Part shown: one piece after another, positions 15,686-29,153 of the stretch | Position numbering within the stretch: position 1 is the stretch's first letter | Layout: every line of letters begins with the position of its first letter | Made by a program: the position numbers and the translations under genes | Virus record (IMG/VR): IMGVR_UViG_3300018080_000027 | Coordinates: 1-54,687 of that record | From: a virus | DNA: 54,687 bases | Direction: 5' to 3' (one strand) | The notes under the pieces: generated by a model | Database searches by the model: none | What the model saw: only the letters and a program-made list of their open reading frames with translations | Told to the model about the DNA's origin: nothing

Positions 15686-16201
15686 ATGACCGCCGGAGTA
15701 ATGCAAGCAATCATCGCCGTCTTGACGTCCATACTGTCGGTTGGTGCCGGCATCTGGATCTACCGCGAAGTGAAGCAGTGGGCCCGCTCGAAGGCCCAGA
15801 AGGGGCTCGCTCTGAAAGCGAAAGTGGACAATTGGCAACAGGAAGTGACGGAGTTTGCTACGCTGTTGGCAATCGCCCAATTCCCGGACGCAGCCAAGAT
15901 CGCCGGCAAGATTTCATCGATCGCCGTCATCCAAACGATCAACGCGTTGCGCGACCTACGCAAGAAACTGTCGGAACCGAATGGCCTGATCGTCGCGCTG
16001 ACCGAGAATTTCTTCTGGCAATTCCCGCAGCGAGTCAAACGCGCCGACGACATTGACCGCCTCGCTGAGATGGTAGCGAAAGAGCCCGAGTTGATGCGCC
16101 GGGTCGACGCGATTCGCGCGAAGACGATCACCGTCGCGCCGACCGCTCCGGGCCCGGTGACGATCGACGTCACACCAACTCCCGTAGCGGCCGCCAAATA
16201 A
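15686..16201 (+). CDS. Single-pass membrane protein (holin- or spanin-like candidate)
   Basis: N-terminal TM segment VMQAIIAVLTSILSVGAGIWIY. RBS GGAGACCGAAAC-ATG. Last gene before the convergent terminator. Confidence 0.5.
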   Translation: MTAGVMQAIIAVLTSILSVGAGIWIYREVKQWARSKAQKGLALKAKVDNWQQEVTEFATLLAIAQFPDAAKIAGKISSIAVIQTINALRDLRKKLSEPNGLIVALTENFFWQFPQRVKRADDIDRLAEMVAKEPELMRRVDAIRAKTITVAPTAPGPVTIDVTPTPVAAAK

Positions 16202-16239
16202 TGGTAGCCGCGAGTTGAGTAATCCGCCGCATCGTGAGC

Positions 16240-16279
16240 AAAACGGCCCTCCCTACTACAGAGTGGAGAGGGCCGTTTT
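16240..16279. terminator. Bidirectional intrinsic terminator between the convergent late and early operons
   Basis: 12-bp perfect stem aaaacggccctc / gagggccgtttt, flanked by an A-run on the left and a T-run on the right. Lies between the stops at 16201 (+) and 16333 (-). Confidence 0.75.
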
Positions 16280-16332
16280 CGTCCGGGGAAACTGACCTTG
16301 TGAACTGGACACTTTCGGAAATGTTACAGCCG

Positions 16333-18159
16333 TTAGAATGCTTCACCGACCGGTTCACCAACCGGTTCTTCCCCCTCCCCGGAGAACATATCCCGGAACC
16401 GATCAAGCGAGAACCGCACGCCCCGGCCATGCACACCACCAACCCGCTGACGGGTCGTGCTGGCCCCCTCAACCCGTCGTAGGTACTGGCTGATTTCCTG
16501 GCCGTCCCAACGGGTGCCCTTCAGGAGCTTCGCGGAGACCTGCTGGTACTGGAACATGATCTGCGGGCAATCGCCGCCATCGATGCGGATCCCCACGCCA
16601 CTGAGCACTTCGAGCCACTCGTCACGGATCACTGGGCCTAGACTGTAAAGGCTCTCGATCACTTGGCCGATGGTCTGCTTTTGCTGCCCCCGCTGGACAT
16701 GCACCCCGAGGATGCACTTCACTAAAACTACCTCGTCTGCCTCTATTGCCTCGCCGCCGTCGTTTGCGCTGGCCAGCATTTCACGCAAGAGACCGGCCGC
16801 TTCAGTCTCGTCCATACCCATTACGGCCGATAGCATGGCCGCTGGAACCGCGTAAGACTCCACTTGTCGGGGGTCAGAGTCCTCGACCGGGGTGGACTTC
16901 AGGCTGACCGCCCGCTGACGGGCCGTGTGCGCAACGAAAAGGGCCGCAGCGAGGCTCCTTTGACCGATAGAGGCAAGTTCCCCGGCAGACGGCAGGGCGA
17001 GCTTATTACGCATGTCTGGGGTCGCAGGGAGCAAAGTGAGGATGACGGCCCGGTTCCGGTCGGCCTGATCTTCGTACGGCAGGCTAATCCCGGCAAGCCA
17101 GCAAAGATGGTGAAGAGAGAAGGACGCCGCCTCGCCCGTAGGCGTGCCCCGAATGGCCCTGGCGCCGGAAGACCGGCTGGCCGATCGGAGCATTTTGAGG
17201 ATTTCGCGTTGCTTCTGGGCTTCGCGGCGGCTTTTCGTGTCGATCTCGTCGACCACCACGACTTTGGCCGATCGCCGCATCTCCTGCCGGAGCCCGGCGG
17301 CCGTGGTGTCGTAGGTGCTGATCGTCATGTCGCGAAACAATCCCATCAGGGCCTCACAGAAGACCGTCTTGCCCGATCCGCTGGCCCCGAGCACATCAAT
17401 ACGAGGGCGCCAAGGCCATGTGGTCTGCAGCCACGTTGCGAAGACCAGGGCCGACGCAGTGAGCACATCCTCGTTGCTGCCCCATCGCCAGCGACGGAAG
17501 AGGTCCACGATGTCGTCAGCTACCTTCCTTCGCCATTCTGCATCCTCGGCCTGCTGGATCATGGATGTCAGCTGGTCGTGATCGTACCAGGGCTTCGTGC
17601 CGCTGGAGAAGTCGAGCAACATATCGTCGTGCCGCGGGTGCTCGATCTTCTCCGTGCCGGCGGAAGTCAATCGCATCCCCTCGCCGAGATTCACCAGCAC
17701 AAGGCTATCGGCCGCCCCGGGCCACACGCCGAAGCCCCGCTTGGTTTCGGACCCGATAAGCCGCTTCCCGGACAATATCCCCAGCATGTTTCGGAGGTCG
17801 GAAATTGAGTACATCCCCGGTACGTCTTCGTTCGTGATGGTAATGTGCTTCCGAACCGGCTGGCCGAATAGCTGCAGCGCTCGAGCGTACCGGAGCCGGT
17901 CGTGGTCCTTCACTTCGATGGTGCGTTTGAAGTGGGTGCTGTAGGCTTCGACAATCCCGCCTTCGCGATGCCCGAGCACGTCTATTTGAATCGCGTCGGC
18001 AATCTGGCGGTCGGCGAATTCGTCTAGCTCTTGATCGGTTGGGCGATCGGGATCGAGCGACTTGCCATCCGGGCCGACTTCCGGCGGACGCCAAGGCTCG
18101 GCGGCTTCGTAGAGATCAAGTAGATCGGCGTATGTGCGTGGCGTCCGTTCCGATTGCAT
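16333..18159 (-). CDS. P-loop NTPase, probable replicative (SF3/D5-like, primase-associated) helicase
   Basis: Walker A GASGSGKT and Walker B VVVVDEID. ATG 18159 (MQSERT) has a GGAG RBS and lies 4 nt after the upstream stop. Downstream of the primase gene in the same operon. Confidence 0.65.
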   Translation of the reverse strand: MQSERTPRTYADLLDLYEAAEPWRPPEVGPDGKSLDPDRPTDQELDEFADRQIADAIQIDVLGHREGGIVEAYSTHFKRTIEVKDHDRLRYARALQLFGQPVRKHITITNEDVPGMYSISDLRNMLGILSGKRLIGSETKRGFGVWPGAADSLVLVNLGEGMRLTSAGTEKIEHPRHDDMLLDFSSGTKPWYDHDQLTSMIQQAEDAEWRRKVADDIVDLFRRWRWGSNEDVLTASALVFATWLQTTWPWRPRIDVLGASGSGKTVFCEALMGLFRDMTISTYDTTAAGLRQEMRRSAKVVVVDEIDTKSRREAQKQREILKMLRSASRSSGARAIRGTPTGEAASFSLHHLCWLAGISLPYEDQADRNRAVILTLLPATPDMRNKLALPSAGELASIGQRSLAAALFVAHTARQRAVSLKSTPVEDSDPRQVESYAVPAAMLSAVMGMDETEAAGLLREMLASANDGGEAIEADEVVLVKCILGVHVQRGQQKQTIGQVIESLYSLGPVIRDEWLEVLSGVGIRIDGGDCPQIMFQYQQVSAKLLKGTRWDGQEISQYLRRVEGASTTRQRVGGVHGRGVRFSLDRFRDMFSGEGEEPVGEPVGEAF

Positions 18160-18163
18160 CGAA

Positions 18164-18514
18164 TCACTCCCGTTCCTCAAAGAGTCGTCCCTGTCCACTC
18201 AATAAGTGCTCCAAGCACCGATCGACCTTCTTCTCCTGCCGCTTTGCTTCGACCAGCGTGGATTGGTTCGGCACGCGAAAGTATTCTTTTTGGGCGTTCC
18301 GCATCTCTTGCACGATGCGGGCTAGGTCTGTGGCATCCATGACATCCTCTATAATTATCACGGAAAAAGGTATTGTAACGACACCAAGCTGAACGTCTCT
18401 GAAAAGCGATGGACCATACGCGGCCTTTATGCCTCGCATTTCTTTACGCTGGAGGCTATGGGGTTCCGCCATGATGGCCCACCGCTCCTTTCCATGTTGG
18501 GTTATGGCGTCCAT
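18164..18514 (-). CDS. Hypothetical small protein
   Basis: ORF 18164..18574. ATG at 18514 is preceded by GAAGGGGA. The start is uncertain (GTG 18574 and ATG 18472 are alternatives). Confidence 0.4.
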   Translation of the reverse strand: MDAITQHGKERWAIMAEPHSLQRKEMRGIKAAYGPSLFRDVQLGVVTIPFSVIIIEDVMDATDLARIVQEMRNAQKEYFRVPNQSTLVEAKRQEKKVDRCLEHLLSGQGRLFEERE

Positions 18515-18690
18515 GCTTCGATCCCCTTCTGCCCCCCGGGCCGGGTCTTCTATGCCGGCCCGGGGGCGGTTCACTTAGAGGGTCAGATGAATTGCAGCTT
18601 CCCCACCCCCAACCGCCACCGCGTCCCTAGCGACCTATCCTGCTGTGGCTCCGTCCAGGTAGCTAGGGGCGGGGATGCTGCTTGTCGCGA

Positions 18691-19452
18691 TCACGACTTC
18701 TTCTTTTTGCCCCAGCGTTTCCAGAAGGCAGCCCAAGCGTCATCGACTTTCGCCCGCTGGATTCGCTTGAACTCCTTTGGCCACCAGTCGCCCTTCTCAG
18801 CCATCAGGTCTGAAAGCTGCCCGAGGTTGGTGCATTTCTCGCAGATGATGTTGTGCTGGCCGAGAGGCAACTTCAGTTCAGCGATTGCCAGCTTCCTCCA
18901 TGAATCATCGCCATCCTCAACTTCGTCTTTTTTGTCGTTCAGCAAGGGCCGGTTAGCATCATTCACTGCCGCCTGGGCGATAGCCGCGAGGTCATCAGTG
19001 TAGAGACCGTGCCGGTCCACAATGTCGCGGAACTCCTCGATGTCGTGCTTGCGAATGCGGCACACGAATCTGCCGCGATCGTCTTTCTTCGGTTCGCCGT
19101 CGGCGTCGACAACCACTTGGGCGTGGCACAGTTCATGGTCAATGAGTGCCACCTTCTGGCTGTCGTTCATTCCGGGCCAGGCTTCCTTGTTGAGCAGGAT
19201 CACGAAATCAAACGAATCCAATTCACGATCGAGATCTCCACGCTTCCGGCACTGGCCCAACCGCAAATGGCCGTTGGCATCGATCCGCCAGCCTATTCGC
19301 CACGCGATCACGATCTTCGTGCCCTTCAGGTCGCCGTGCTCGCTCGCGATGAGCTGCTCCATGATCCGATAGGGCTCCGTCACTTTGCCTTGGTGCTTCC
19401 GCTTGAGCACCTGGACTGTCACTCGCTTCCGCTTCTTTTTCTTCTCGGCCAC
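18691..19452 (-). CDS. Putative phage metallopeptidase-domain protein (HExxH) with a lysine-rich N-terminus
   Basis: VALIDHELCHAQV motif inside a domain of about 130 aa. MAEKKKKRKR N-terminus. Confidence 0.5.
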   Translation of the reverse strand: MAEKKKKRKRVTVQVLKRKHQGKVTEPYRIMEQLIASEHGDLKGTKIVIAWRIGWRIDANGHLRLGQCRKRGDLDRELDSFDFVILLNKEAWPGMNDSQKVALIDHELCHAQVVVDADGEPKKDDRGRFVCRIRKHDIEEFRDIVDRHGLYTDDLAAIAQAAVNDANRPLLNDKKDEVEDGDDSWRKLAIAELKLPLGQHNIICEKCTNLGQLSDLMAEKGDWWPKEFKRIQRAKVDDAWAAFWKRWGKKKKS

Positions 19453-19455
19453 TGA

Positions 19456-20547
19456 TTAGGCTCCTATAAGAAAGTCTCGAACGTCCTTGCCTGACTTAGG
19501 CTGGATCTCGTAGGGTAGTTTCGCTACGCGAGCTTCTGCCGCGACACCATGCAGTGCCCGGCACCATTTCTCCACGCCGACTTGGCCGGCTTCGTCCGCG
19601 TCTCCCACAACGGCAACCGGAAGGCCCGCCAAGAGCTTGACTTGGTGCGACACTATCTCGGCGGTGGCTCCGGCGGGGGAAGTCACGACGGCGATATACT
19701 CTCTCTGGTCCTCGGGAATTGCACCCATGAGCGACAGTAGGTCCGGAATGCCTTCTACCTTCCAGACTAGCTTGATTTCTTTCCGCCGCTCCTCATCGAG
19801 CAGCATTATCAGGCTAGATAGCCCGCAAAGCGTTCCGTGCGTTGGGCCAACGCTGACGTTCTTCGCGTACCGCCGATCGCCGCCCGCTTTCCGCACGTCC
19901 GGTGGGGTCACGTCGATCGGCTGGCCCGACGTGTCGAAGACTTGCCACGCCACCGGATCGGCGTCGAGGAACCATTCCCCGTAGCACGGAAACGCGACCA
20001 CCTGCCGAACATTGTGTGTTCTCTTGAGCTTCTTCGTCTTTTTGTCGACGTAGCACGGGTAGTAGGCGAGTTGACCGCCGGCCGCCTTGATCGATTCGAG
20101 CGTGACACCCGGCTTGTGAAGGCACCACCCTTGGGCCAGCATTTCGTTTCCCGGCGTCTCCCACGATTGGAATTCAATCCTCGTTCTCCAGTTGGTCTCC
20201 CCCCGGTTGGATTGCTTTGTGCGGCCGATCGTGATTCCCGCCTTCTCCGCGTACGCCTTACGAGCCGCTTTCCAGTCAGCAAATTTACCCGCGTTGGCCG
20301 CGAAGTCGAATAGCGAGCAGGAATAGGCGGCCACGTTCTTGCCGCCGGAGTCGCCGTAGTATCCCGTCTTGATGTTGATCCAGGCCGATGGCTTCCGGTC
20401 CTCGCGTCCAAACGCATAGCACGACACCATGCCGGATGATCGAGGCGAGCCACTGACCTGGACGCCGAGAGCAGCGTACTCGCCGGCAACGTCGAGGCGG
20501 CTCATTATTTCGGCATTGATCTCTTGTGGTGTTTGACTAGCCATTTT
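19456..20547 (-). CDS. DnaG-like primase (TOPRIM) with a degenerate CHC2 zinc-finger region
   Basis: TOPRIM motifs KVEGIPDLLS and VAVVGDADEAGQ. N-terminal SCYAFGREDRKPSAWINIKTGYYGDSGG resembles CPFHxEKTPSF...CFGCGxxGD but lacks most Cys residues. ATG 20547 has a GGGAG RBS and overlaps the upstream stop. Confidence 0.75.
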   Translation of the reverse strand, partial: KMASQTPQEINAEIMSRLDVAGEYAALGVQVSGSPRSSGMVSCYAFGREDRKPSAWINIKTGYYGDSGGKNVAAYSCSLFDFAANAGKFADWKAARKAYAEKAGITIGRTKQSNRGETNWRTRIEFQSWETPGNEMLAQGWCLHKPGVTLESIKAAGGQLAYYPCYVDKKTKKLKRTHNVRQVVAFPCYGEWFLDADPVAWQVFDTSGQPIDVTPPDVRKAGGDRRYAKNVSVGPTHGTLCGLSSLIMLLDEERRKEIKLVWKVEGIPDLLSLMGAIPEDQREYIAVVTSPAGATAEIVSHQVKLLAGLPVAVVGDADEAGQVGVEKWCRALHGVAAEARVAKLPYEIQPKSGKDVRDFLIGA

Positions 20548-21091
20548 GCTCCCACCATTTGTGCATGATCTGAAATGCCAGTAGTTCTGCTCGCCGCCGG
20601 TCGCCGGCATAGAACCACGGCACGCCATATTTCTGAGGCCACGACGCGGTCACACCGAGGATCGTATTTCCGCTCGCCCGCCGGCCGTCGTCGGCATCTA
20701 GTTCCTCGCAGATTGCCGACATCGAGCCCTCGATCACGACGCACGCGAATCCTCCCGATTCGATCATCTCGGCCATGCGTTCGTGCTCGCGACGGAACCG
20801 AGCGTTCCCGGCGGTGACAGAACCCACGAGATCGGATGCTGACTTTCGCTCGATCGTGAAGTGGTGCGCGTAACTCTGGATTGAGTAGTCGCCAATCGCG
20901 ATTGAGTAGTCTCCGGTCTGGAGAGTTTGCTTATGCTGTCTGACTACCTGCTGGTCGCCCCTGAGCACAATCCCTTGAAACGTCCACGGAGCTTGCTCTC
21001 GCGTGTCGACGAGTATACCGAACGGACAAACCGACAGGTTCATAGTGGGTTGCTGCACGATGCGTTTCGTGGGGGGGGAGCACTGTATCAT
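20537..21091 (-). CDS. ERCC4/XPF-Mus81-type nuclease domain protein
   Basis: VDTREQ, GDYS and IERKSASDLVGS (ERKxxxD signature). ATG 21091 overlaps the upstream stop as ATGA and is preceded by GGGAGA. Confidence 0.75.
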   Translation of the reverse strand: MIQCSPPTKRIVQQPTMNLSVCPFGILVDTREQAPWTFQGIVLRGDQQVVRQHKQTLQTGDYSIAIGDYSIQSYAHHFTIERKSASDLVGSVTAGNARFRREHERMAEMIESGGFACVVIEGSMSAICEELDADDGRRASGNTILGVTASWPQKYGVPWFYAGDRRRAELLAFQIMHKWWEQNG

Positions 21092-22074
21092 AGCGACCCG
21101 TCTCCCTCTCCCTCGGCAGCCCCAACATTCCCGCGCAACTCCATCTCCCCAATAACGAACTCGAAACCATGTTGATACTCGGCCTGTTGCTCTTCGGTGT
21201 AGCCATGATCCGCGGCACATTGCTCGCCGTGCTCACGCCACCAAGAGACCGGTTTGCGAATGCAGCCGCTCGTGATATGGCCGTTGTCCGATTCGCAGAC
21301 GAAATGACTGGATGGCTGAATGAATACGGGGGATTGGTACCATTCCCCGCCGTGGAAGATCCCGTCGTGGAAGGTCCCGCCGTAGAAGGCCCCGCCGTGG
21401 AAGGTCCCGCCGCGGAAGATCCCGCCGCGGAAGGTCCCGCCGCGGAAGGTCCCGCCGCAGAAGGCCCCGCCGCGGAAGGTCCCGTCGTAGAAGGCCCCGC
21501 CGTAGAAGGTCCCGCCGCGGAAGGTCCCGCCGTGGAAGGCCCCGTCGCGGAAGGTCCCGTCGTGGAAGGTCCCGCCGTGGAAGGTCCCGTCGTGGAAGGT
21601 CCCGTCGTAGAAGGTCCCGTCGCAGAAGGCCCCGCCGTAGAAGGTCCCGTCGTGGAAGATCCCGCCGTAGAAGGCCCCGCCGCGGAAGGTCCCGCCGCGG
21701 AAGGCCCCGCCGCGGAAGGCCCCGCCGTGGAAGATCCCGTCGTGGAAGGCCCCGCCGTGGAAGGTCCCGCCGTGGAAGGTCCCGTCGTGGAAGGTCCCGC
21801 CGCGGAAGGTCCCGCCGCAGAAGGTCCCGCCGCGGAAGGTCCCGCCGTAGAAGGCCCCGCCGCCGAAGGTCCCGCCGTGGAAGGTCCCGCCGTGGAAGAT
21901 CCCGCCGTAGAAGGTCCCGTCGCGGAAGGTCCCGCCGTAGACAATTGCCGGTCCCGAAAATCGGCAACCATCGCTTGGACTCACAGCCTTATGCACTGCT
22001 GCTTTTCCGATCATCCTCCAATCGGATGTGTCAGTGCTAGTAATGCGTGCCGCCCTTTCAATTAGCGATTCCAT
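21088..22074 (-). CDS. Repeat protein with 40 tandem non-canonical pentapeptides x(G/D)G(T/A/I)F, plus a Cys/His-containing C-terminal domain
   Basis: ATG 22074 (MESLIERAAR) lies 26 nt after the helicase stop, with a GAGAAAGGAAA RBS. The stop is coupled to the nuclease start (ATGA at 21088-21091). Only this frame has coupled boundaries. Confidence 0.7.
   Translation of the reverse strand: MESLIERAARITSTDTSDWRMIGKAAVHKAVSPSDGCRFSGPAIVYGGTFRDGTFYGGIFHGGTFHGGTFGGGAFYGGTFRGGTFCGGTFRGGTFHDGTFHGGTFHGGAFHDGIFHGGAFRGGAFRGGTFRGGAFYGGIFHDGTFYGGAFCDGTFYDGTFHDGTFHGGTFHDGTFRDGAFHGGTFRGGTFYGGAFYDGTFRGGAFCGGTFRGGTFRGGIFRGGTFHGGAFYGGTFHDGIFHGGEWYQSPVFIQPSSHFVCESDNGHITSGCIRKPVSWWREHGEQCAADHGYTEEQQAEYQHGFEFVIGEMELRGNVGAAEGEGDGSL
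21340..21939. repeat. Perfectly phased 15-bp tandem repeat, 40 units, + strand consensus GAAG[G/A][T/C]CCCG[C/T]CG[T/C][G/A]
   Basis: All 39 full units were enumerated by eye. There are no indels, 10 of 15 positions are invariant, and 5 positions toggle between transition pairs (one exception, gcc in the unit at 21850-21864). Confidence 0.95.
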
Positions 22075-22100
22075 GTCATTTCCTTTCTCGTATTGCTTCC

Positions 22101-24467
22101 TCACCAAGTCCTTTCGTCTCCCTCCACAAGAAGAACCCCCGCGTCCGCTGCTATCTGGCGGATCGTTTCCGCCATAAACGTCTTTCGCTCTTGAAGCACC
22201 GCTCGGCGGCACACCGAATCGGCCACATGCTTTGCCCCGACGGCGATACACACCTTCTGCGCTCGAGACAGTCCGGTGTAGACGTGTTCTCGGCTCATCA
22301 CGCCATGTGGACCGCTCGCACCGGGGTACTCGTCGAGGCAGTAGATAACGACCGGCCATTGGCTGCCTTGCGATTTGTGCGTGGTCACGGCGTACGCCAA
22401 GTCGAGGTCGCAGCCCGTGCCTGCCTCGTCGCCGTTCTTTTCGTCGCTGGCCGGCTTGCCGGCGCCGCGGAACACAATCACCGGCTTGAGTGTGCTGGGA
22501 AATTGCACCACCGTTTTCTTCTCTTCCGCGACCAGCACCTTGCCGATTTCTCCGTTGGCAATCAGTGCCTTTTCGTCGGCAGAAGACCATTCCCCTTTCC
22601 GGGATCGCGTTGCAAACGGAATGAATTGGTTCTTGAGCTGAATCACCTTGTCGCTAGCGCGAAACGGGGTGCGGATATTCTTGTCGGCAACGGCTGGATT
22701 CAGAAGGTCCTGAAGTCGCTTGTTCAGGGCCACGCGACCTAGCGTCGACCGCTTGTTGACCGCTACCAATACCTGCGCGTCCCAGACAGCATCGAAGGGC
22801 GAATTGTCGCGGATGTCTCCGAGTATTTCACAGATGACGTTCGGCGCCTGCGAGCCCTTGCAGTGGCGCAGGATTAGGTTCTTGGGGTTTTCGGCTTGCA
22901 GGTCGAATTGTTCGTCCGGCTCCCACGGCTCTCGGTCGATGATCGCGGAGCAGACCCGAACGATAGTGCCGGCATTTCGGTGAATCTCCACCAGTTCCCC
23001 GCTCGGCAATCCCGCTTCGAGCATGTCGCGTACCGGGGCACCGTACTCGACTGGGGGAAGCTGGTTGACGTCGGCTACCAAGAGCAACCCGCACCCCCGC
23101 GGTATCGCGGCCAGTAGCGAGCGGAACAATCCCGTACCGAGCATCGACGCTTCTTCGACGATCACGAAACGAGCCGCGAGCGGGTTGGCCTCATCGTGCT
23201 GGAACTCCCACCCGCCCTCGTCGACCGCCTGGACGCCAAGTCCCGAATGGATCGTCGTCGGATTCGTGCCGGCGAGTTTCGCTTCGGCCATCAATTCCTT
23301 GACTCGCTGGGCGGCTTTTCCGGTCGGCGCCATCACCTTCACGCAGCCCTGACCGTGCATCTTCTGGATCGCACGGACAAGCCGCACGAGCGTAAACGAT
23401 TTCCCGGTCCCCGGCCGCCCGCCAAGGATGCCCACCGGGCCGCCTAGCGCACGGCGAAGCTCGCTCCGCTGATGGTCAGTCAATTCGCTGAAGTCTTCCT
23501 GGTCTACAGACGGCCACTCGATCGAATCATGGGCCATCTTGTCGGCCAGCTTCCGGCAACAATACTCCTCGGCGTTCGCGCGTCGAATGTCGGCCGACCA
23601 CACCTTCCCAAACTGGTCTTTTCGCACCTTCAGGATCTTGCCGCGGACGGCCAGTGTGAGCGCCTTCTCGGGAGTGACTTGCGTACCGCCCACCGCGGCC
23701 TTCAGGTAATCGATGCCCTTCTGCCACTCCACCCACGTATGCCCCTCGCCGTCTGAGGCTTTCAGGGTCGCGTAGGTCAGGCAGTACGCTTGCCGCTTCA
23801 GCTTGGCCGGGTCATGGCCGAGGTCTAAGTAGAACTTGTCCGCCTTCAGGAACCCGACGCCACGCAAGGCCATCGCCCGGTGCGGCCAACGGGTGAGGAT
23901 GTCGTGTGCCGCTGCCCCCCACAGCGTCAGCGATTGGCGAACACACGCCTTGCCGAATCCACGGCCATCGAATAGATCGTATAGCTGGATCGTGAGGTCT
24001 TCGGCGGCCTTCAACTCGTGCAACGTCTCGGCCGCCTCGCGTGCTTTCTCGGGCGTGAATTGTCTCACGCCGATGGCTTCGGCTGCCTGCTCCGGTTCCT
24101 CTCGCAGTTCTTTGACCGCATCGCCCCGAAACGCATCCCACAACGCGTGGGCGATCGCCGGGCCGACGTGCTTGGCCTGCTGGAGGTACTTGACAATTCC
24201 CGCCTGGTTGTGCGGCTGAACGGAAGCGAATGAATCGAAGCGGAACGATGGCCCGTACTGGCTATTACTGTTGTCCCATCGCCCCCAGAACCGAAATGGC
24301 AATTGGGCCTTCAGTTCGCCCGGTTCCGCGTTGCCGAGGATCGAGAACCTCGCGGGTGCGTCCCGGTTGACCGGCGGCTGTTGTTTCGCCGACATGATGC
24401 AGAACGAATCACGGCGAAACTTTTCGTCGATCGGGACCGCTGTTATCTCGTGCAATTTTGCTGGCAT
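22101..24467 (-). CDS. RecD/TraA-family SF1 DNA helicase
   Basis: GGRPGTGKSF (motif I), APTGKAAQR (Ia), FVIVEEASML (II), LLLVADVNQLPPVEYGAP (III), AVTTHKSQGSQWPVVI (V/VI) and VYTGLSRAQK. Confidence 0.9.
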   Translation of the reverse strand: MPAKLHEITAVPIDEKFRRDSFCIMSAKQQPPVNRDAPARFSILGNAEPGELKAQLPFRFWGRWDNSNSQYGPSFRFDSFASVQPHNQAGIVKYLQQAKHVGPAIAHALWDAFRGDAVKELREEPEQAAEAIGVRQFTPEKAREAAETLHELKAAEDLTIQLYDLFDGRGFGKACVRQSLTLWGAAAHDILTRWPHRAMALRGVGFLKADKFYLDLGHDPAKLKRQAYCLTYATLKASDGEGHTWVEWQKGIDYLKAAVGGTQVTPEKALTLAVRGKILKVRKDQFGKVWSADIRRANAEEYCCRKLADKMAHDSIEWPSVDQEDFSELTDHQRSELRRALGGPVGILGGRPGTGKSFTLVRLVRAIQKMHGQGCVKVMAPTGKAAQRVKELMAEAKLAGTNPTTIHSGLGVQAVDEGGWEFQHDEANPLAARFVIVEEASMLGTGLFRSLLAAIPRGCGLLLVADVNQLPPVEYGAPVRDMLEAGLPSGELVEIHRNAGTIVRVCSAIIDREPWEPDEQFDLQAENPKNLILRHCKGSQAPNVICEILGDIRDNSPFDAVWDAQVLVAVNKRSTLGRVALNKRLQDLLNPAVADKNIRTPFRASDKVIQLKNQFIPFATRSRKGEWSSADEKALIANGEIGKVLVAEEKKTVVQFPSTLKPVIVFRGAGKPASDEKNGDEAGTGCDLDLAYAVTTHKSQGSQWPVVIYCLDEYPGASGPHGVMSREHVYTGLSRAQKVCIAVGAKHVADSVCRRAVLQERKTFMAETIRQIAADAGVLLVEGDERTW

Positions 24468-24622
24468 AGGTCCTCCGTGGCTATTTCCCAGGCAGCTCTC
24501 ATTAGGTCCGCTGCGTCTTCTTGCGAAAAACCGTCTCGGACAAGGGCTTCAGCGGCCATGAGCACGGCGGCTGTAGTCTGCTTGTCCGACTTGGCCTCAG
24601 TCGTTTCTGCTCTAGCAATCAT
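24443..24622 (-). CDS. Hypothetical small protein
   Basis: ORF 24443..24634. ATG 24622 overlaps the upstream stop (TAATG). The 3' end overlaps the helicase start by 25 nt. Confidence 0.4.
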   Translation of the reverse strand: MIARAETTEAKSDKQTTAAVLMAAEALVRDGFSQEDAADLMRAAWEIATEDLCQQNCTR

Positions 24623-25038
24623 TAGTGAAACCATTTCGATAGTCCCTCCAGCATGTTTTCGAGTGCAGCAAGTTGCCCGTCGGTTGCAGAGCCGATTCTC
24701 TCGACTGTAGCAATGATCTCCGTTGCCTTTTCGAGCACGCTGGTAGCGAAGTCGTAACCAGCATCGGGAATGTTCCCGTTCGCTACTAAGTCCTCGATTT
24801 CAGAAAACATCTCGCACGCCTCGTCGTGGCTGTTCGAGGCCGGCGATACCGGCGCGGGCTTCGTTGATTCCGTCGCAGGAAGCAATTTCTTTTCGATCGA
24901 CTCCCGCATCAACTCCCAGAAGCGTCTCCGCGACTGGTCAGACGGTAGCAGCGGGACCTCTCCTGCCAATAAACGGCCGATAGTGCGGTGCAGGTTCCGT
25001 GCTGCCTTACCGTCGTTGACGTTGTCTTCAATGGCCAT
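24622..25038 (-). CDS. Hypothetical protein
   Basis: ORF 24622..25083 (TTG start in the track). First ATG is at 25038. No clear RBS, so the start is uncertain. Confidence 0.4.
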   Translation of the reverse strand: MAIEDNVNDGKAARNLHRTIGRLLAGEVPLLPSDQSRRRFWELMRESIEKKLLPATESTKPAPVSPASNSHDEACEMFSEIEDLVANGNIPDAGYDFATSVLEKATEIIATVERIGSATDGQLAALENMLEGLSKWFH

Positions 25039-25146
25039 GTCGAACACCGTGAAAGAAAAGTGCGGCGGCCCGCGCAAAAGCAACCGAAAAGGGAGTCCTG
25101 ATTCGCCTTCGGAGACACTTGAGCCGCAGGCCGCCGCGTAGTAGAG

Positions 25147-25722
25147 TTACCAGTCCATTCCCGCATTACCGGCAGCGGGAGCCGCGGCTGCCGGCGGTTG
25201 CTGCTGGGTCGCCGGCCCGCCCGCTTGCTGTGTAAGCATCCCGAGAAACTGCTTGTCCTTCGGAATGCGGATTGCTTTCGGTGAATGCACCGAGAACGTG
25301 CGGAATCCGATCCGCGGGTACGGGCCGGGCTTCTCCTTGTCGGGCTCGTACTTGCCGGTGGCCTCGTTCTTGGTCATGTTCGGCTCCATCTTGACGCTGG
25401 CGCAGATTTGCCGGCCCTTGAAGAGCGATTCGTCGATGTCGAGACCTAGGCCGGCGTCGGCCGCCGCTTTCCGCTGTTCGGCGGTAATGATCCCCGCCGC
25501 CTCCGCGAGGTTGTAGAGCTTGTCGACGGCCTTCCCTTCGCACGGGAAGAACTCGCTGACCTGTTTGCCCTTCTGGGAAGCATCGCTCGCCGCGAGAACT
25601 TGGAAGACACACTTCACGGCCGTGCCGTACTGCGTTTCGACCGAGCAATCTTCGATCAGCAGGTGGCAATCGCAGTCGGCATCGATCATCCGACTAGAAG
25701 AACCCGGATCGCATTGAACCAT
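25147..25722 (-). CDS. DUF669-like putative ssDNA-binding protein
   Basis: ATG 25722 is preceded by GGAGGA. The pattern resembles DUF669 proteins that usually follow Sak4/AAA_24 ATPases. C-terminal Q/P/A-rich tail. Confidence 0.45.
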   Translation of the reverse strand: MVQCDPGSSSRMIDADCDCHLLIEDCSVETQYGTAVKCVFQVLAASDASQKGKQVSEFFPCEGKAVDKLYNLAEAAGIITAEQRKAAADAGLGLDIDESLFKGRQICASVKMEPNMTKNEATGKYEPDKEKPGPYPRIGFRTFSVHSPKAIRIPKDKQFLGMLTQQAGGPATQQQPPAAAAPAAGNAGMDW

Positions 25723-25893
25723 TTCAGTTTCCTCCATTCAGTAGGGCCTCAAGTTTGATCTGTTGGCTCGCCGTGAGGCCCCAGGTGGGCGGAAAGCCAT
25801 TTACTTCAAGGCTACCAAGCCATACTCTGGCGTGTCCGAATCGCCCGCACAGTACGGACAGGTCATTGGGCCAGGCGAGCGACCGGAGCCACG

Positions 25894-27432
25894 CTAAAAA
25901 GGGATCTCGTCTTCCTTAACCGTTTGCGCCGCGGGGTTCAGCATTCCCTCGAGCGCCGCGATACGATCCGCTGCTTGCTGGAAGCTGAGGGAATTCGCCG
26001 AGTTGTACCCGAGCGATTGCAGGAATTTCGCGTTCTCTGCCATCGCACCCTGGCTGTAGAGCTTCATCGAGAGATCGCGAATCCGGTCTCGCTGCTCTTG
26101 TGTGGCCCTGCCGTTGGTGGGCAGCGCCGGTTCTTTTTCGGCTGGCGGGAGCACTGGCATTGCCGCCATGTCTTTGTCGTGCTTCATCTTCAGCAGCTTG
26201 GAGAGGACATCTTCGGCCTCCGAAGCGGGCAGTTGTGCCGGGCTGTTGACGTTTGTTTGCGCCGAGAACCATTCGCACGCATGGGCGCCGGTCTCGAATA
26301 GTTCCCTCAAGAGCCCCATGATCTCTTGCTGCTCTCGGTCTGAAGCCAACGCCGGCTGAGGATCTTCGGCGGGCGGTGCCGTTGCGGGTGGCTGCGATCG
26401 AGTGTCTGCGTTTCCGGCCGCCGCGGCTTGCTTTGCCAATTCCAAAGCCGACAGCTTCGATTGCTCTGCCTCGGCCTGGAATTGGGCGATCTGCTGCTGA
26501 ACCGCGAGCCGCTCGTCCTCGCTCAGTTTCGCCGGCTCGGGCAGCCGTTCGGCAGCCGCCAGCTTACTAAAGTCCGGCGGGTTCGCGATGTACGCCCGAA
26601 TTGCGTCGGGAGTGCATTCCGGTATTCGAGGCGGGAGAACGGGTCGATCGTCGGCCGCCGTCTTCCCGAAGACGACTAACCGCTCCTTCTTCAAGATGCC
26701 GGCCGGTACTTTGGGTGCTTCCTTGCCCTTCGCTTTCGGAGACCGGTCAAGCTCGATGTGGAGGGTCGCGAGTTTCTCAAGGACATCGAGTCCTTCGGCA
26801 ATCTTGTTCTTCGTCTTCTTGCCATCAGCCCACTCGTTCTTCAGATGAACCGTCATCACGAAGGTCTCGAACCGCAACCGGCAATCGGTCGACAGGATGT
26901 GTGAGAGCATCGACTTCACGTCCGGCCAGAGAAACATGCTGGCGGCCTTCGTGTACTCGGCCGCCGATCGCCCGAACGCCTCGGGGTGCCGACGAAGCCA
27001 GTCGATGAGCCCTTCTTGCAATGGCGTGAACGTGTCGACGATACCTACGCGGTATCGACCGGGTGGAATCGAGAGCATCGAGAGATACCACGCGCGAAAG
27101 AGTGAGGCCGATGGCGAATTGCCGCAATCGGCTTTCTCTTTCAAGATTCGGAGCCAACGAGGGTCGTTGCTCTCGGGTGTGACCACGCGATTATGAACCC
27201 CCGCGTCAATAGCCGCTCGCGTGTCCTTGTGCTCGAAGTTGAGCCCACCAGCGTAGGAATCCAGCGACCCCTCTTGGTCGAATGCGATAGTGGTCGGCTC
27301 GACTTCCGACGACGGCAGCCGGCAATTTTCATCGATCGTCACGCCGAACAGGCTCTTCCCGCTGTTGACTGCGCCGGACACCATGATGATCGGTATCCGC
27401 TGGTTCCCCCAAAGACTTGTGGATGTTGGCAT
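25894..27432 (-). CDS. RecA-superfamily P-loop ATPase (Sak4/AAA_24-like) with a long C-terminal extension ending in an SSB-type acidic tip
   Basis: Walker A SGAVNSGKS and Walker B-like RVGIVDTF. ATG 27432 is preceded by GGAGGGAG. The last residues are KEDEIPF. Confidence 0.6.
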   Translation of the reverse strand: MPTSTSLWGNQRIPIIMVSGAVNSGKSLFGVTIDENCRLPSSEVEPTTIAFDQEGSLDSYAGGLNFEHKDTRAAIDAGVHNRVVTPESNDPRWLRILKEKADCGNSPSASLFRAWYLSMLSIPPGRYRVGIVDTFTPLQEGLIDWLRRHPEAFGRSAAEYTKAASMFLWPDVKSMLSHILSTDCRLRFETFVMTVHLKNEWADGKKTKNKIAEGLDVLEKLATLHIELDRSPKAKGKEAPKVPAGILKKERLVVFGKTAADDRPVLPPRIPECTPDAIRAYIANPPDFSKLAAAERLPEPAKLSEDERLAVQQQIAQFQAEAEQSKLSALELAKQAAAAGNADTRSQPPATAPPAEDPQPALASDREQQEIMGLLRELFETGAHACEWFSAQTNVNSPAQLPASEAEDVLSKLLKMKHDKDMAAMPVLPPAEKEPALPTNGRATQEQRDRIRDLSMKLYSQGAMAENAKFLQSLGYNSANSLSFQQAADRIAALEGMLNPAAQTVKEDEIPF

Positions 27433-27560
27433 GGCTCCCTCCGTTGAGTTGAATGACATTCAAGTTCCAGAGTGGAGCGGCCGGGAATCGGGCCCGGCAC
27501 AAGGCCACGAGCGGTGATAAGTGGAGTCCCGTCCTTCGCTCGTTCCTTCGCTCCGGTCGT

Positions 27561-28319
27561 TTAGCCCATTCCCAATCGCTGGGCGACCCAAAGCGTGACA
27601 CGCACGTCTTGGCGAAGGTACTCCAGGGCCAACTCTCGCTCTTTCTTCGATCCGTGGTACATCCGGTCGAAGTCGGCGCCGGTACATCCCTTCAGTTTGC
27701 CCTCGACGCCGAACGCCCTGGCCAGAACGTCGAGTTTCACGTACTGACCATACGCGCCCATCGTCCAGGTAGTCATGGTGTCGAGAAACGCCTCGCTGTT
27801 GAATTGCAGACGACCGCCGCGAAACGTGAACACCCAGTCGGGAATTGAGACGTCGAGCAGCCACGAACGACGCACGAGAAATGGCAAGTCAAAACCGACG
27901 CCGTTATGGAAGACAAACTCTTCGCCGTCTACGTGGCTTATAACGGCTGTCTCCCACCAATGAGTCAGCACTCCGACTTCTCCGTGCCCGTGGAGCAAAT
28001 GCGGTTCCCTCACGGAAAACCCGTCCCACATCCCGATTGCCAGCACCCTCCCCGTCAGCGGATCGAGCGCCGCCTTCTCTTTCACGCCGGCCAACCATTC
28101 GGCTTTATGGCTGGCGAGGTAGTTTGGCCAGTTGGCGATCTTCGCGCAATGGATGGCTTCTGCCTCCGCAATCTTCGCGTCGATCGTTTCCTGCTTCTTC
28201 GCCCGTCCAAGGTCTACCGATGCCGGGTCAAACGCCCCCGGTTTCTCCGGCGGCTCGTACTGCCGCAACAGTTCCTCGTCAGGCTGTGCCCCCGTCTCGA
28301 TGTCGACCGCTATTAGCAT
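27561..28319 (-). CDS. DEDD (DnaQ/PolB-exo-like) 3'-5' exonuclease
   Basis: MLIAVDIETG (ExoI), FHNGVGFDLPFL (ExoII) and YLRQDV (ExoIII-like). A GGAGGGAG RBS sits inside the csrA 3' end. Confidence 0.75.
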   Translation of the reverse strand: MLIAVDIETGAQPDEELLRQYEPPEKPGAFDPASVDLGRAKKQETIDAKIAEAEAIHCAKIANWPNYLASHKAEWLAGVKEKAALDPLTGRVLAIGMWDGFSVREPHLLHGHGEVGVLTHWWETAVISHVDGEEFVFHNGVGFDLPFLVRRSWLLDVSIPDWVFTFRGGRLQFNSEAFLDTMTTWTMGAYGQYVKLDVLARAFGVEGKLKGCTGADFDRMYHGSKKERELALEYLRQDVRVTLWVAQRLGMG

Positions 28320-28479
28320 CGCTCCCTCCTCGGGTTAGAAGTTCTTCGCGCAGAATGCGCAAGTCATCGGGTGCCTCGATGGCCAAACGAGCTTCGCCCG
28401 CTTTGGCCCGAGTGACGGTGATTCGCACGTTGTTCCCGATATGAATCGCTTGTCCGATCTTCCTTGCTAAGACGAGCAT
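28279..28479 (-). CDS. csrA: CsrA/RsmA-family RNA-binding translational regulator
   Basis: MLVLARKIGQAIHIGNNVRITVTRAKAGEARLAIEAPDDLRILREEL aligns almost residue for residue with E. coli CsrA ([47 protein letters not shown]). AAGGAG RBS 7 nt upstream. Confidence 0.9.
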   Translation of the reverse strand: MLVLARKIGQAIHIGNNVRITVTRAKAGEARLAIEAPDDLRILREELLTRGGSDANSGRHRDGGTA

Positions 28480-28505
28480 CGCTTCACTCCTTTGATTGGA
28501 TTACC

Positions 28506-28554
28506 AAGAAACAAAAACGCCCCTGGCCGATGGGTGCGAGTCATCGACCAGGGG
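28506..28554 (-). terminator. Strong intrinsic terminator on the minus strand, about 27 nt upstream of the csrA start codon
   Basis: Minus strand: CCCCUGGUCGAUG-ACUCGCACC-CAUCGGCCAGGGG (13-bp stem with one G.U), followed by CGUUUUUGUUUCUU. Confidence 0.7.
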
Positions 28555-28754
28555 GCACACTCGCGGAGGGGCATCCGCGTCGACCTGACAATTACTGGAC
28601 GGTCTTTCCTGTGGTCCGTGTCCTCCGAACGCGCAGCACCAAGCTGCAACACCATCCGTGCGTGCTTCCATGCTAGACCCCAGCGCGAGTTAGTTTGCAC
28701 CGGATTGATTCGAGAGGGAACCAAGAGGGTGCTGTGTTTTGGAAACGCTTAACG
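28555..28754 (-). promoter_or_regulatory. Untranslated GGA-rich leader, or a possible stand-alone small RNA, between the promoter and the terminator
   Basis: No credible ORF. Seven GGA triplets on the minus strand cluster within about 28574-28670, including CACGGAUGG and a GGAC...GUCC hairpin with GGA in its loop. An eighth GGA is in the csrA Shine-Dalgarno. Confidence 0.4.
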
Positions 28755-28777
28755 CATCGCAAATGTATATTGCGATG
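28755..28777. promoter_or_regulatory. Perfect palindrome CATCGCAA-N7-TTGCGATG overlapping the -10 and start site (candidate operator)
   Basis: 8-bp arms at 28755-28762 and 28770-28777. Confidence 0.55.
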
Positions 28778-28790
28778 AAGAATTAGTCAA
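28762..28790 (-). promoter_or_regulatory. Sigma70-type promoter for the leftward early (csrA-led) transcript
   Basis: Minus strand TTGACT (28790-28785), 17-nt spacer, TACATT (28767-28762). Located in a local AT-rich island. Confidence 0.55.
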
Positions 28791-28796
28791 GTGCCG

Positions 28797-29030
28797 TTAT
28801 CGCTTTTTCTTCCGGCGCCGCTTTCTGAACATCGGATTACCGCGCAATCGCTCGGTCTCCTTGAATCGGAAAACCTCATCTTCCGGAATGAGCCACATTG
28901 GCCCTACCCGTCGAGTGTCCTTGAATCGGCCTTCTTTGCAGTAGCGTGAAACGAGGCTGTTGCAAATCCCGATAACCGGAGCCGCCTCGTCGACCGTCAT
29001 CATTCCCGGAATGTTGGTTGCCATACTCAT
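28797..29030 (-). CDS. xis: Excisionase-family (MerR-like HTH) DNA-binding protein
   Basis: MTVDEAAPVIGICNSLVSRYCKEGRFKDTRRVGPMWLIPEDEVFRF is a typical excisionase/HTH_17 pattern. Divergent from int, with attP between them. Basic C-terminal tail. Confidence 0.65.
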   Translation of the reverse strand: MSMATNIPGMMTVDEAAPVIGICNSLVSRYCKEGRFKDTRRVGPMWLIPEDEVFRFKETERLRGNPMFRKRRRKKKR

Positions 29031-29062
29031 GCCTTTATTGTAGGATGTGATGGACAATTGAG

Positions 29063-29145
29063 CAATACAGACACGCGGGAAGTTCCACGGCTCACAGCAT
29101 TGCCGCCGGGGCGTTGCCGCTACCCGCTTCCCGCGGTCTGTATTG
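29063..29145. repeat. Imperfect 19/20-bp inverted repeat flanking about 44 bp, next to the attP core
   Basis: CAATACAGACACGCGGGAAG (29063-29082) versus CTTCCCGCGGTCTGTATTG (29127-29145), with a one-base length difference between the arms. Confidence 0.6.
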
Positions 29146-29153
29146 GGGTTCAG

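Follow-up and report, generated by a model that had tools for sequence, protein, structure and literature searches.

A gene within the replication/recombination module of a phage encodes what we consider, with a probability of about 0.65, to be a pentapeptide-repeat-like solenoid under concerted evolution, in which selection keeps the diversity of the surface and which would serve as a rod or binding surface with a conserved C-terminal domain. The window, meaning the whole analyzed stretch of 54,687 nt, represents a phage genome that is complete and was assembled as a circle of about 54.6 kb.

The architecture of the product, a short N-terminal cap followed by a long solenoid of xGGxF repeats and a conserved C-terminal domain, is strongly supported (Table 1). 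The protein consists of 328 aa and not of 329 aa as given in the initial annotation. Its start codon agrees with M1 of the homologue P0001 in the alignment, and the ribosome binding site proposed for it was found, 13 nt past the helicase stop codon. The proposed ATGA overlap with the following gene was present as well; on sequence grounds it suggests translational coupling of the repeat gene and the nuclease gene. The C-terminal domain is characterized by the conserved motif SP..IQG....SGCI.KP..WW.E....CA...GYT..Q..EY.

Table 1. Features of the repeat gene and its surroundings in the window
Feature	Position	Strand	Remarks
RecD2-like SF1 helicase gene	22101..24467	-	upstream, same operon-like block; Pfam AAA_19, AAA_30, UvrD_C_2, HHH_RecD2; phrog_4412 E = 2.4e-81
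Shine-Dalgarno-like GAAAGGA	22081..22087	-	spaced 6 nt from the following ATG (22074), read from the sequence
Gene of the 328-aa protein, complete	21088..22074	-	encodes cap, 40 repeats of five residues and C-terminal domain; coordinates include the stop codon
N-terminal cap, aa 1-45	21940..22074	-	motif DWRMIGKAAVH...C.F.GPAI common to homologues (alignments)
Repeat array, 40 x 15 nt	21340..21939	-	40 pentapeptides [H/R/Y/C/G][G/D]G[T/A/I]F; HGGEW in the final unit
C-terminal domain, aa 246-328	21091..21339	-	modelled as three strands and two helices
ATGA stop/start overlap	21088..21091	-	shared with the ERCC4-type nuclease gene that follows (20537-21091); from the sequence

The previously described 40 units of 15 bp without any indel were exact on the minus strand, in agreement with TRF (period 15, 39.5 copies, 0% indels, score 808). 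On this strand the unit reads [C/T][A/G]C G[G/A]C GGG [A/G][C/T]C TTC. As reported before, ten of the 15 positions were invariant in units 1-39 (positions 3, 4, 6, 7, 8, 9, 12, 13, 14 and 15), and the five others (1, 2, 5, 10 and 11) toggled between transition pairs with a single transversion, namely in unit 6, where position 1 is G and the pentapeptide is GGGAF. Unit 40 was degenerate (HGGEW). The array is in phase with ORF 22074..21088 at an offset of 135 nt, and all five toggling positions are first or second codon positions of this ORF. A degenerate 21-mer had 39 matches with 0.13 expected by chance. In total, 16 unit types were present, the five toggle sites were near linkage equilibrium, and lag autocorrelation over lags 1-20 detected no higher-order period in the array. 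Further copies of the unit outside the array were not found within the genome.

Thirty homologues shared the same N- and C-terminal domains together with xGGxF repeats. The reading frame is fixed because these homologues keep the cap and the C-terminal domain in the xGGxF frame, and the minus-strand frame assumed earlier is therefore, judged by this conservation, very probably the translated one. The peptide of the antisense frame differs between lineages (EGPAV in the window, ERAAT in array L017).

The homologues also bear on a proposed role of the 15-mer array as DNA, either as an iteron-type origin or as a recombination or packaging signal with a secondary peptide period. Forty phased copies in a replication module, adjoining helicase and primase-like genes, and a GC content of 73% compared to 59% in the genome would fit such a role. 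However, the homologues keep xGGxF and not the DNA, with wobble minor-allele fractions of 0.3-0.5 in arrays L001, L002 and L009; homogenized arrays elsewhere use other codons, and in some relatives the units are 18 or 24 nt long. Together with terminal domains conserved as protein and the lack of another unit copy in the genome, this makes a DNA-level role highly improbable. The iteron idea in particular was not supported, since members with diverged arrays retain the peptide period and lose the DNA sequence.

The expected solenoid was in agreement with the AlphaFold2 model, which predicts a regular beta-solenoid with a pLDDT of 90-97 in the array (mean of the whole model 82) and an 'EEE--' strand-turn pattern every 5 residues. 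In the cap, residues 2-11 were modelled as a helix, accompanied by short strands (pLDDT 55-75), and the C-terminal domain modelled alone reached a pLDDT of 88.5. When the family profile was compared to the PDB, the best match was the luminal domain of SV2C (E = 1.7e-6). The profile also matched 6fls, annotated as a pentapeptide-repeat protein, as well as QnrB1, EfsQnr and AlbG, with the Phe aligned to the central Phe; the similarity to the latter three was weak (E = 0.085-0.33). Pfam matches stayed below threshold (Pentapeptide_4 with 23.7 bits versus 38, LD_SV2 with 23.8 versus 29), the window protein reached the threshold of no curated family, and pentapeptide-family models were matched at all by one of 18 family members. 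Searches of BFVD led to phage proteins named 'pentapeptide repeat'. The whole model had no significant Foldseek match in the PDB (best E = 0.086), and the weak ones were a mixture of left-handed hexapeptide helices and pentapeptide-repeat proteins, triangular as well as quadrilateral. For the C-terminal domain alone there was likewise no significant PDB match (best E = 1) and no family match in profile searches. The Hailong effector HalA (19 bits at a cut-off of 250; PDB 9nyi, E = 0.016) was dismissed as a candidate and taken as repeat-pattern similarity only.

The protein resembles pentapeptide-repeat proteins (Rfr fold; Pfam PF00805/PF13599 clan; SV2C luminal domain, HetL, Np275/276, QnrB1 and MfpA), to which its best PDB profile matches belong, in the strict 5-residue period, the central aromatic or aliphatic residue (here Phe), the small residue two before it, the Gly/Asp at the corner and the regular, here predicted, beta-solenoid. 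It departs from the consensus A(D/N)LXX by its xGGxF repeat with Gly and not Ala at i-2, an invariable Phe at i and T/A/I instead of D/N at i-1. Moreover, cut-offs of Pfam and NCBIfam were unreached and no solved member was significantly matched by Foldseek; the surface is neutral and His-rich, an extra C-terminal domain is present and the repeats are homogenized in DNA. Mapped onto the Rfr fold, Phe would be the central inward residue (i) and the invariant Gly would replace the usual small inward Ala (i-2). The residues T/A/I (i-1) and H/R/Y/C (i+1) would point outward, with G/D (i+2) at the corner. The array may form the ten quadrilateral coils proposed before, with 20 residues each and right-handed as in the Rfr fold, or triangular coils of 15 residues. 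According to DSSP, the AlphaFold2 model contained two irregularities 15 residues apart. The D or I residues did not segregate significantly by face with either 3 or 4 repeats per coil, the order of the units being uncertain.

Codon bias could be excluded as the cause of the wobble invariance, since the codon usage of the window predicts 98.5 of 195 codons to differ and none did (log10 P = -67). The homogenization of the array assumed in the initial annotation was confirmed by its uniformity at the DNA level, which arose independently in lineages with other fixed codons. For the invariant residues these were GGC GGG TTC in the window, GGT GGC TTT in L004 and GGT GGA TTC in L006. Array L017 had fixed CGT/CAT/TAT, GGC and ACG; it varied at the same five nucleotide positions and showed zero wobble variation in 26 units, and its toggle at positions 10-11, AC<->TG, couples two changes, with a transversion among them. 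At least seven independent homogenized arrays with differing synonymous codons were distinguished (L017, L006, L008, L004, L012, L013 and L023).

Within homogenized arrays, codon pairs for the same amino acid differed in 0-6% and amino-acid pairs in 13-43% of cases, compared to 26-63% and 38-56%, respectively, in diverged arrays. The ratio of synonymous to non-synonymous variants was 7:64 in homogenized versus 99:138 in diverged arrays (Fisher p = 1.7e-7). It remained at 7:55 versus 99:138 when the window was left out (p = 2.8e-6), and an MK-type test gave p = 0.0035. The amino-acid variety at the three surface positions, for which diversifying selection had been suggested, was far above the synonymous variety and recurred in independent lineages.

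For the window array alone the case is different. The earlier observation that all variation is non-synonymous, read there as the opposite of neutral drift, was correct, and the pattern was replicated in other lineages. However, five variable sites would miss the wobble class of the given frame with P = 0.084, and that of any phase with P = 0.25. The antisense ORF 21169-22065 likewise lacked wobble variation. Counted as mutational events (about six) and not as units, the selection signal of this array is weak, and the non-synonymous-only pattern thus becomes compelling only through its replication in other lineages.

These chance values would also be compatible with neutral concerted evolution only, in which five or six old polymorphisms outside the wobble positions were by chance spread and shuffled by unequal recombination, with no selection for diversity. 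Recombinational shuffling indeed predicts near linkage equilibrium of the five sites and numerous unit types such as the 16 found here, and the assemblies compared below differ only by re-assortment of existing alleles. We nevertheless regard this explanation as unlikely, because the synonymous deficit recurs, with the window excluded, in independent arrays with other fixed codons. Furthermore, founder units taken from a diverged array would differ synonymously in 26-63% of same-residue codon pairs, and the H/R/Y and G/D toggles are common to lineages in which the wobble bases were replaced array-wide.

The preferred reading combines concerted evolution with selection. That duplication, deletion and unequal recombination of units are frequent and keep the 15-nt units almost identical in DNA is strongly supported. 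The same process probably also creates alleles differing in number and order of units within an otherwise clonal phage population. Because selection would act on the protein, fixing the two inward residues and maintaining a small but varied set of residues at each of the three surface sites, non-synonymous differences between units would persist or be regenerated, and synonymous ones would be swept away. If true, this is a clean natural case of concerted evolution erasing the silent variation of a folded repeat protein whose surface variety is kept by selection.

Concertedly evolving intragenic repeats with an excess of non-synonymous variation are known from Plasmodium circumsporozoite-type arrays, bacterial contingency loci and hyvI/hyvII of Liberibacter prophages. 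Common features are units nearly identical at synonymous sites, a unit number varying between close relatives and few variable codon positions. The window array differs from them as it forms, according to the prediction, a folded solenoid core and not a disordered or surface-antigen repeat, and as it is located in a phage replication module.

The toggles could alternatively be made by targeted mutagenesis, through a diversity-generating retroelement (DGR) or a deaminase acting on the structured repeat. With CGCGGCGGGGCCTTC as a possible ancestor, all five can be read as transitions of the GC<->AT type, and as in DGR variable repeats the wobble positions are avoided. The repeat gene has in common with DGR target genes that its variation is restricted to the first two positions of codons, and that it is a phage gene with hypervariability inside a population. 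However, the window contains no second unit copy that could be the template repeat, there are two states per site instead of the adenine-to-any-base spectrum of DGRs, and the variation consists of unit re-assortment. The wobble positions 3 and 6 share the CpG/GCG context of the mutated position 2 and are yet invariant, and the AC<->TG change in L017 involves a transversion. We therefore consider targeted mutagenesis extremely improbable. Mutational context, that is methylation of CpG, GCC or GGCC followed by deamination, was rejected as well, since these two wobble positions are invariant despite an identical context.

A change in copy number among related genomes, proposed as a check on the array, was indeed found. 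Four assemblies of the same phage carried arrays of 40 (the window), 34 or about 36 units, and their flanks agreed throughout the compared 2242 + 3803 nt, about 6 kb (0 mismatches). The comparison is based on short-read assemblies of metagenomes, and the sample sets behind the variant contigs overlap (JGI 3300017991; ENA ERZ27256796 and ERZ27256773). The array of L029 contained 34 units and that of L033 was different again. L034 and L030 represent opposite ends of one contig, which would have about 36 units if joined by a 22-nt overlap. All differences between the assemblies were inside the array, which was the only variable locus within the compared flanks of this phage population, and all base changes affected the five toggle positions. 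The unit type GGGAF was confined to the window and CGGAF to L029 and L033; toggles of one base were also present in the unambiguous 3' half of the array, for example at position 11 of unit 24. A 2656-aa protein encoded elsewhere in the genome was identical in 5 contigs. In a second, co-occurring phage, the arrays comprised 26, 14 and 11 units.

Part of this heterogeneity could be assembly error because of the short reads, the overlapping samples and the two contigs breaking inside the array. That all of it is artefactual and the array truly monomorphic would be in line with the origin of all variant contigs from overlapping sample sets and with one of the two contig ends entering an apparent cycle. 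Private unit types and single-base toggles, on the other hand, are not producible by mis-threading if the window derives from the same reads, and the second phage behaves alike; an entirely artefactual origin is in our opinion rather unlikely. Caution is called for with short-read assemblies, which arrays of this kind break or scramble. If the preferred reading is true, the gene would be of practical use for typing strains of these phages.

A further, tentative reading, which we rate as possible but not probable, is that of a contingency locus. Here, intra-array recombination would re-deal length and surface of the solenoid and provide many protein alleles in a clonal population, for escape from or continued binding of a fast-evolving host factor, e.g. 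a defense sensor. It would represent a recombination-based analogue of DGRs or antigenic variation inside a replication module, and the solenoids of penta-, hexa- or octapeptides that replace each other before the one conserved C-terminal domain would be the long-term trace of this arms race.

The gene downstream of the repeat gene was confirmed as an ERCC4-type nuclease gene (ERCC4 Pfam E = 4.7e-11; phrog_3490 E = 1.2e-16). In other viral contigs, family members were also flanked by replication or recombination genes. The helicase/nuclease neighborhood, however, was confined to one phage group, and the neighbors elsewhere were ERF/YqaJ, DUF5906, SNF2 or methylase genes. The functional link to the ERCC4 nuclease and the RecD helicase suggested before was therefore not supported.

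This is also of importance for the idea of a DNA-mimicking solenoid of the Qnr/MfpA/AlbG type that would act on a topoisomerase, nuclease or helicase as protector or inhibitor. The location between the RecD-like helicase and the ERCC4 nuclease, a rod of 40 repeats that is long enough, and the weak similarities to QnrB1, EfsQnr and AlbG mentioned above and to the NCBIfam Qnr model all speak for it. But that model, the equivalog NF033086, yielded 16.5 bits at a cut-off of 240, and the His/Arg/Tyr-rich repeat domain has a net charge of 0 (R12, D11, H15), the pI of the whole protein being 6.1. Among homologues the net charge of the repeats ranged from -10 to +6, i.e. from acidic to basic. In relatives, hexapeptide arrays replace the pentapeptide array, which argues against a precise DNA-like geometry. 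With the helicase/nuclease neighborhood limited to a single phage group in addition, the charge and the Qnr score leave DNA mimicry very unlikely.

The solenoid is probably a rod or binding surface that evolves rapidly and carries the conserved C-terminal domain; in relatives, this domain follows solenoids of hexapeptide or 8-residue repeats. As a low-confidence guess based on the position in the early/replication module, the protein might interact with a host or phage factor in DNA metabolism or host takeover. If true, the repeat gene is a candidate host-interaction or anti-defense gene.

In the literature on phage pentapeptide-repeat proteins or repeat-variable solenoids we found no description of an xGGxF family. 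A DNA search of window positions 16000-36000 against GenBank phages had no match, and the window protein had none by tblastn against that collection, the latter probably in part because of low-complexity masking. A metagenome scan with the C-terminal domain detected only 3 loci, and a genome scan only 4 MAG loci. The sole PHROG match of the window protein was a weak one on the repeat region (phrog_12514, E = 7.9e-5), and the profiles of phrog_7964 and phrog_5353 were not matched directly.

By phmmer, the C-terminal domain (window aa 242-328) was recovered in at least 153 clusters of 50% identity at E <= 1e-3 and in 10 at E <= 1e-10, located at the C-terminus in nearly all of them. It was joined to penta-, hexa- and octapeptide repeats in different relatives, and superfamily relatives were present in 81 GenBank phage records. 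If true, this constitutes an unannotated and fairly widespread phage superfamily with a conserved C-terminal domain on interchangeable beta-solenoids. The hexapeptide relatives P0036, P0052 and P0105 matched phrog_5353 across the region of the C-terminal domain, and the latter two matched phrog_7964 there as well. The uncharacterized families phrog_7964, phrog_5070 and phrog_5353 include orf229 of Streptococcus phage Sfi19 and hypothetical proteins of Liberibacter phages SC1/SC2, Bacillus phage Bp8p and Xanthomonas phage CP1. They have the same cap and a solenoid of variable length, with the C-terminal domain in many members, and differ from the window protein by hexapeptide (V.G.A. or IGS.A.) instead of pentapeptide repeats. 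Like the window gene, their members are located in early or DNA-metabolism regions of the phages.

The gene encodes a pentapeptide-repeat-like solenoid followed by a conserved C-terminal domain. The initial annotation had described an uninterrupted array of exactly 40 units, a ribosome-binding site in front of the ATG and an ATGA overlap with the ERCC4 nuclease gene. All of these were found in the sequence (GAAAGGA, 6 nt 5' of the ATG), and only the stated protein length of 329 aa had to be corrected. The unit reads [C/T][A/G]C G[G/A]C GGG [A/G][C/T]C TTC. Within units 1–39 ten positions were invariant, and positions 1, 2, 5, 10 and 11 (here referred to as toggles) each alternated within a transition pair, the single transversion being in unit 6, which has a G at position 1. 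The fortieth unit (HGGEW) was degenerate. The array contained 16 unit types with the five toggles near linkage equilibrium, and no higher-order period was found among the units. A degenerate 21-mer derived from the unit matched 39 times in the whole window (0.13 expected), never outside the array.

Coordinates of the repeat gene and of further features
Feature	Position	Strand	Remarks
ORF with array in phase	22074..21088	minus	328 aa
Repeat array	21939..21340	minus	40 x 15 nt, no indel
ATGA overlap with ERCC4 nuclease gene	21088-21091		
Antisense ORF	21169-22065	plus	AVEGP repeats
Alternative-frame ORF	20931-21971	minus	
Alternative-frame ORF	21233-21967	minus	
Exact terminal repeat	1-123 and 54565-54687		123 nt
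Eight large ORFs, presumed structural region	1466-5756 and 37615-48041	plus	
2656-aa ORF	5756-13726	plus	LPD38 'large polyvalent protein' domain
HTH_17 protein	28797-29279	minus	
Serine recombinase	30641-31669	minus	Resolvase and Recombinase domains
Second tandem-repeat run	49835-49949		12- and 18-nt periods
Head-closure Hc3	52411-53697		PHROG match
Tandem paralogues in contig L002 (= L003; IMGVR_UViG_3300033141_005605)	8721-12430		five, head-to-tail

Homology settles the reading frame. In total, 30 metagenome proteins share with the window protein the N-terminal region (DWR.VG.AAVH...C.F.GPAI), xGGxF repeats in varying number and the C-terminal domain (SP..IQG...SGCI.KP..WW.E...CA...GYT..Q..EY), and the closest homologue (P0001) has the same start Met. 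These conserved termini confirm the minus-strand xGGxF frame preferred initially. The long ORFs running through the array in other frames, with AVEGP, GPSTA and RRDLP repeats, are a side effect of the repetition; the peptide that the units give on the antisense strand is not conserved, being EGPAV in the window and ERAAT in L017, a contig of a related phage.

AlphaFold2 modelling with an 18-sequence alignment (mean pLDDT 82, array 90–97) predicted a regular beta-solenoid, the fold that the initial annotation had proposed to look for, with 3-residue strands (x4-F-x1) and 2-residue turns (x2-G) at a period of five residues. Among all PDB sequences the family profile matched best to the luminal domain of SV2C (E = 1.7e-6), a Phe-rich pentapeptide-repeat helix, followed more weakly by 6fls, annotated as a pentapeptide-repeat protein (E = 0.003), QnrB1 (0.085), EfsQnr (0.11) and AlbG (0.33). 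Since the repeat Phe aligned with the central Phe of these matches, it was assigned to position i, facing inward as does the invariant Gly at i-2; T/A/I at i-1 and H/R/Y/C at i+1 face outward and G/D at i+2 lies at the corner. Usual pentapeptide-repeat proteins carry Ala at i-2 and Leu/Phe at i. A putative coil of four Phe and four Gly would have a core volume roughly like that of the usual four Leu/Phe and four Ala. The window protein missed the thresholds of Pentapeptide_4 (23.7 bits vs 38) and LD_SV2 (23.8 vs 29) in Pfam and of the NCBIfam Qnr model (16.5 vs 240). Foldseek with the whole model gave no significant match in the PDB, the weak ones mixing triangular and quadrilateral helices. 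A search of BFVD gave one apparent homologue, A0A2I7QWZ5 (E = 1.9e-7 at 36% identity); further matches, at E ~1e-3, were phage proteins carrying a pentapeptide-repeat annotation. Residues 122–185 bore a weak resemblance to HalA, the anti-phage effector of Hailong (19 bits in NCBIfam, cut-off 250; PDB 9nyi, E = 0.016), which probably reflects the common repeat pattern only.

The exclusively non-synonymous variation had been taken as evidence of selection. On the window array alone this argument fails, since five variable sites miss the wobble class of one frame by chance with a probability of 0.084, and any phase class with 0.25, and since the antisense ORF likewise has no wobble variation. Codon bias was ruled out as the cause of the invariant wobble bases: if codons were drawn as elsewhere in the window, 98.5 of the 195 should differ from the codon used (log10 P = -67), so the units must have a very recent common DNA ancestry.

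The argument for selection was carried by replication in other arrays. All arrays were set in 15-nt register and their codon variation was compared. In a diverged class (L001, five in L002, L007, L009) same-residue codon pairs differed in 26–63% and amino-acid pairs in 38–56%. In a homogenised class (window, L004, L006, L008, two in L012, L013, L017–19, L023) the former value was 0–6% and the latter 25–43%, or 13% in L023 with its 10 units. Homogenisation took place independently in each lineage, because the invariant residues became fixed with a different codon set in each array (GGC GGG TTC in the window, GGT GGC TTT in L004, GGT GGA TTC in L006, GGC GGC TTC in L008 and GGC GGA TTC in L012). 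Counted per codon column, the ratio of synonymous to non-synonymous variants was 7:64 in homogenised and 99:138 in diverged arrays (Fisher p = 1.7e-7; p = 2.8e-6 without the window). The sharpest replicate was L017 with 26 units of [C/T/G][G/A]T G[G/A]C GGC [AC/TG]G TTC, where the same five nucleotide positions vary as in the window, again with zero wobble variation but with other codons (CGT/CAT/TAT, GGC, ACG vs CGC/CAC/TAC, GGG, ACC). Between the two consensus sequences three synonymous and no non-synonymous differences were fixed, whereas inside the arrays 10 variable sites were non-synonymous and 0 synonymous (MK-type table, p = 0.0035). The hexapeptide array of L027 had a like tendency, with one linked synonymous variant.

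A mutational hotspot was ruled out, as wobble positions 3 and 6 stay constant in spite of their CpG/GCG contexts and positions 10–11 of L017 toggle as a linked double change including a transversion. A DGR was excluded by the absence of a template copy from the window and of an adenine-specific spectrum from the variation. The suggested iteron role gained no support either, the DNA of the array being unconserved in relatives. The signature of concerted evolution with maintained surface diversity is well replicated, and it is through these replicates, not the window array alone, that homogenisation combined with diversifying selection, the central idea of the initial annotation, is supported. 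Units of the array turn over and recombine rapidly, which removes synonymous variation and creates alleles of differing length and order; selection on the protein probably fixes the inward Phe and Gly and keeps a mixed, restricted alphabet at the three surface positions.

When exact copies of the adjacent ERCC4 and helicase proteins were sought, three more assemblies of the same phage emerged, each ~54.5 kb in size. Their flanks were identical (0 mismatches, over 2242 nt on the upstream and 3803 nt on the downstream side), and the 2656-aa protein was the same, residue for residue, in five public contigs, one of them Logan SRR6963352. Copy number, which the initial annotation had proposed to compare, differed, these short-read assemblies having 40 units in the window, 34 in L029, ~36 in L034 and L030 (opposite ends of one contig) if joined, and yet another arrangement in L033. 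The 3' 22 units were common with single toggles (unit 24 position 11 C/T; unit 40 position 2), the codon directly after unit 40 toggled TAC/CAC, and all differences fell on toggle positions. Two contigs terminated within the array. Some differences may be artefacts, because short reads from overlapping sample sets were assembled. Mis-threading of the same reads, however, cannot account for unit types private to an assembly, GGGAF being exclusive to the window and CGGAF to L029 and L033. Hypervariability of the array within the phage population is probable. The co-occurring related phage (L017, L018, L019) carried 26, 14 and 11 units between flanks 99–100% identical.

When 1.84 billion representatives were searched with only the C-terminal 87 residues, 153 clusters matched at E <= 1e-3. 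The domain was preceded by xGGxF pentapeptides, by hexapeptides (IGS.A., V.G.A., LG..C., VVLG..) or by an 8-residue CTF.TG.. repeat, and was also found in repeat-less proteins and in an intein-bearing one. Fusions to other modules were listed for P0037, P0039, P0043, P0047, P0052, P0085, P0112 (hexapeptide or 8-residue solenoids) and P0077 (intein/LAGLIDADG-like region). Since one domain is joined to such different regions, the sequences suggest that the repeat module in front of it is exchangeable. A model of the domain by itself was confident (pLDDT 88.5) and consisted of three strands and two helices; the domain had no fold match in the PDB and was without annotation in Pfam, NCBIfam and PHROG. 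Hexapeptide-type relatives belong to the uncharacterised families phrog_7964, 5070 and 5353 and occur in 81 GenBank phage records, every one hypothetical or misannotated, among them Streptococcus Sfi19 (orf229), Liberibacter SC1/SC2, Bacillus Bp8p and Xanthomonas CP1. The feature is real: a non-canonical pentapeptide-repeat solenoid in an uncharacterised phage superfamily, notable for its evolutionary pattern and its modular family. The tandem paralogues in L002, all cap-xGGxF-C-terminal proteins with arrays of the diverged type, are located just 3' of YqaJ and ERF recombination genes.

The window gene is flanked by a RecD2-like helicase and the ERCC4 nuclease, then Toprim primase-like and phage metallopeptidase genes. 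In the related phage of L017–L019 (RecD 401 bits) the repeat gene lies on the opposite side of ERCC4; its RecD, ERCC4 and orf16333 module is the same, as are the three sample sets. Neighbours in other contigs were YqaJ and ERF, a DUF5906 primase-helicase, SNF2 helicase, HNH nuclease, DNA methylase and NUDIX. No specific partner gene was common across the neighbourhoods compared (window, L017–L019, other contigs); the constant feature is location in the early, DNA-metabolism region. A DNA mimic, as initially considered, is not supported by the repeat domain, which has a net charge of 0 and is His/Arg/Tyr-rich. Our best guess at a role is a rod or binding surface which evolves fast and, in early infection, may present the C-terminal domain to a factor of the host or the phage.

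The exact terminal repeat suggests that the window is a circularly closed assembly and a complete genome of ~54,564 bp. The serine recombinase and HTH_17 genes suggest a putative temperate or integrative lifestyle. None of the eight large ORFs had a PHROG match at E <= 1e-3, head-closure Hc3 being the only match, and positions 16000-36000 of the window had no DNA match in GenBank phages; judged by sequence, the lineage is very divergent. The second, short repeat run, GCCACGGCAACC (TRF scores 54–61), is Thr/Ala-rich in one frame.
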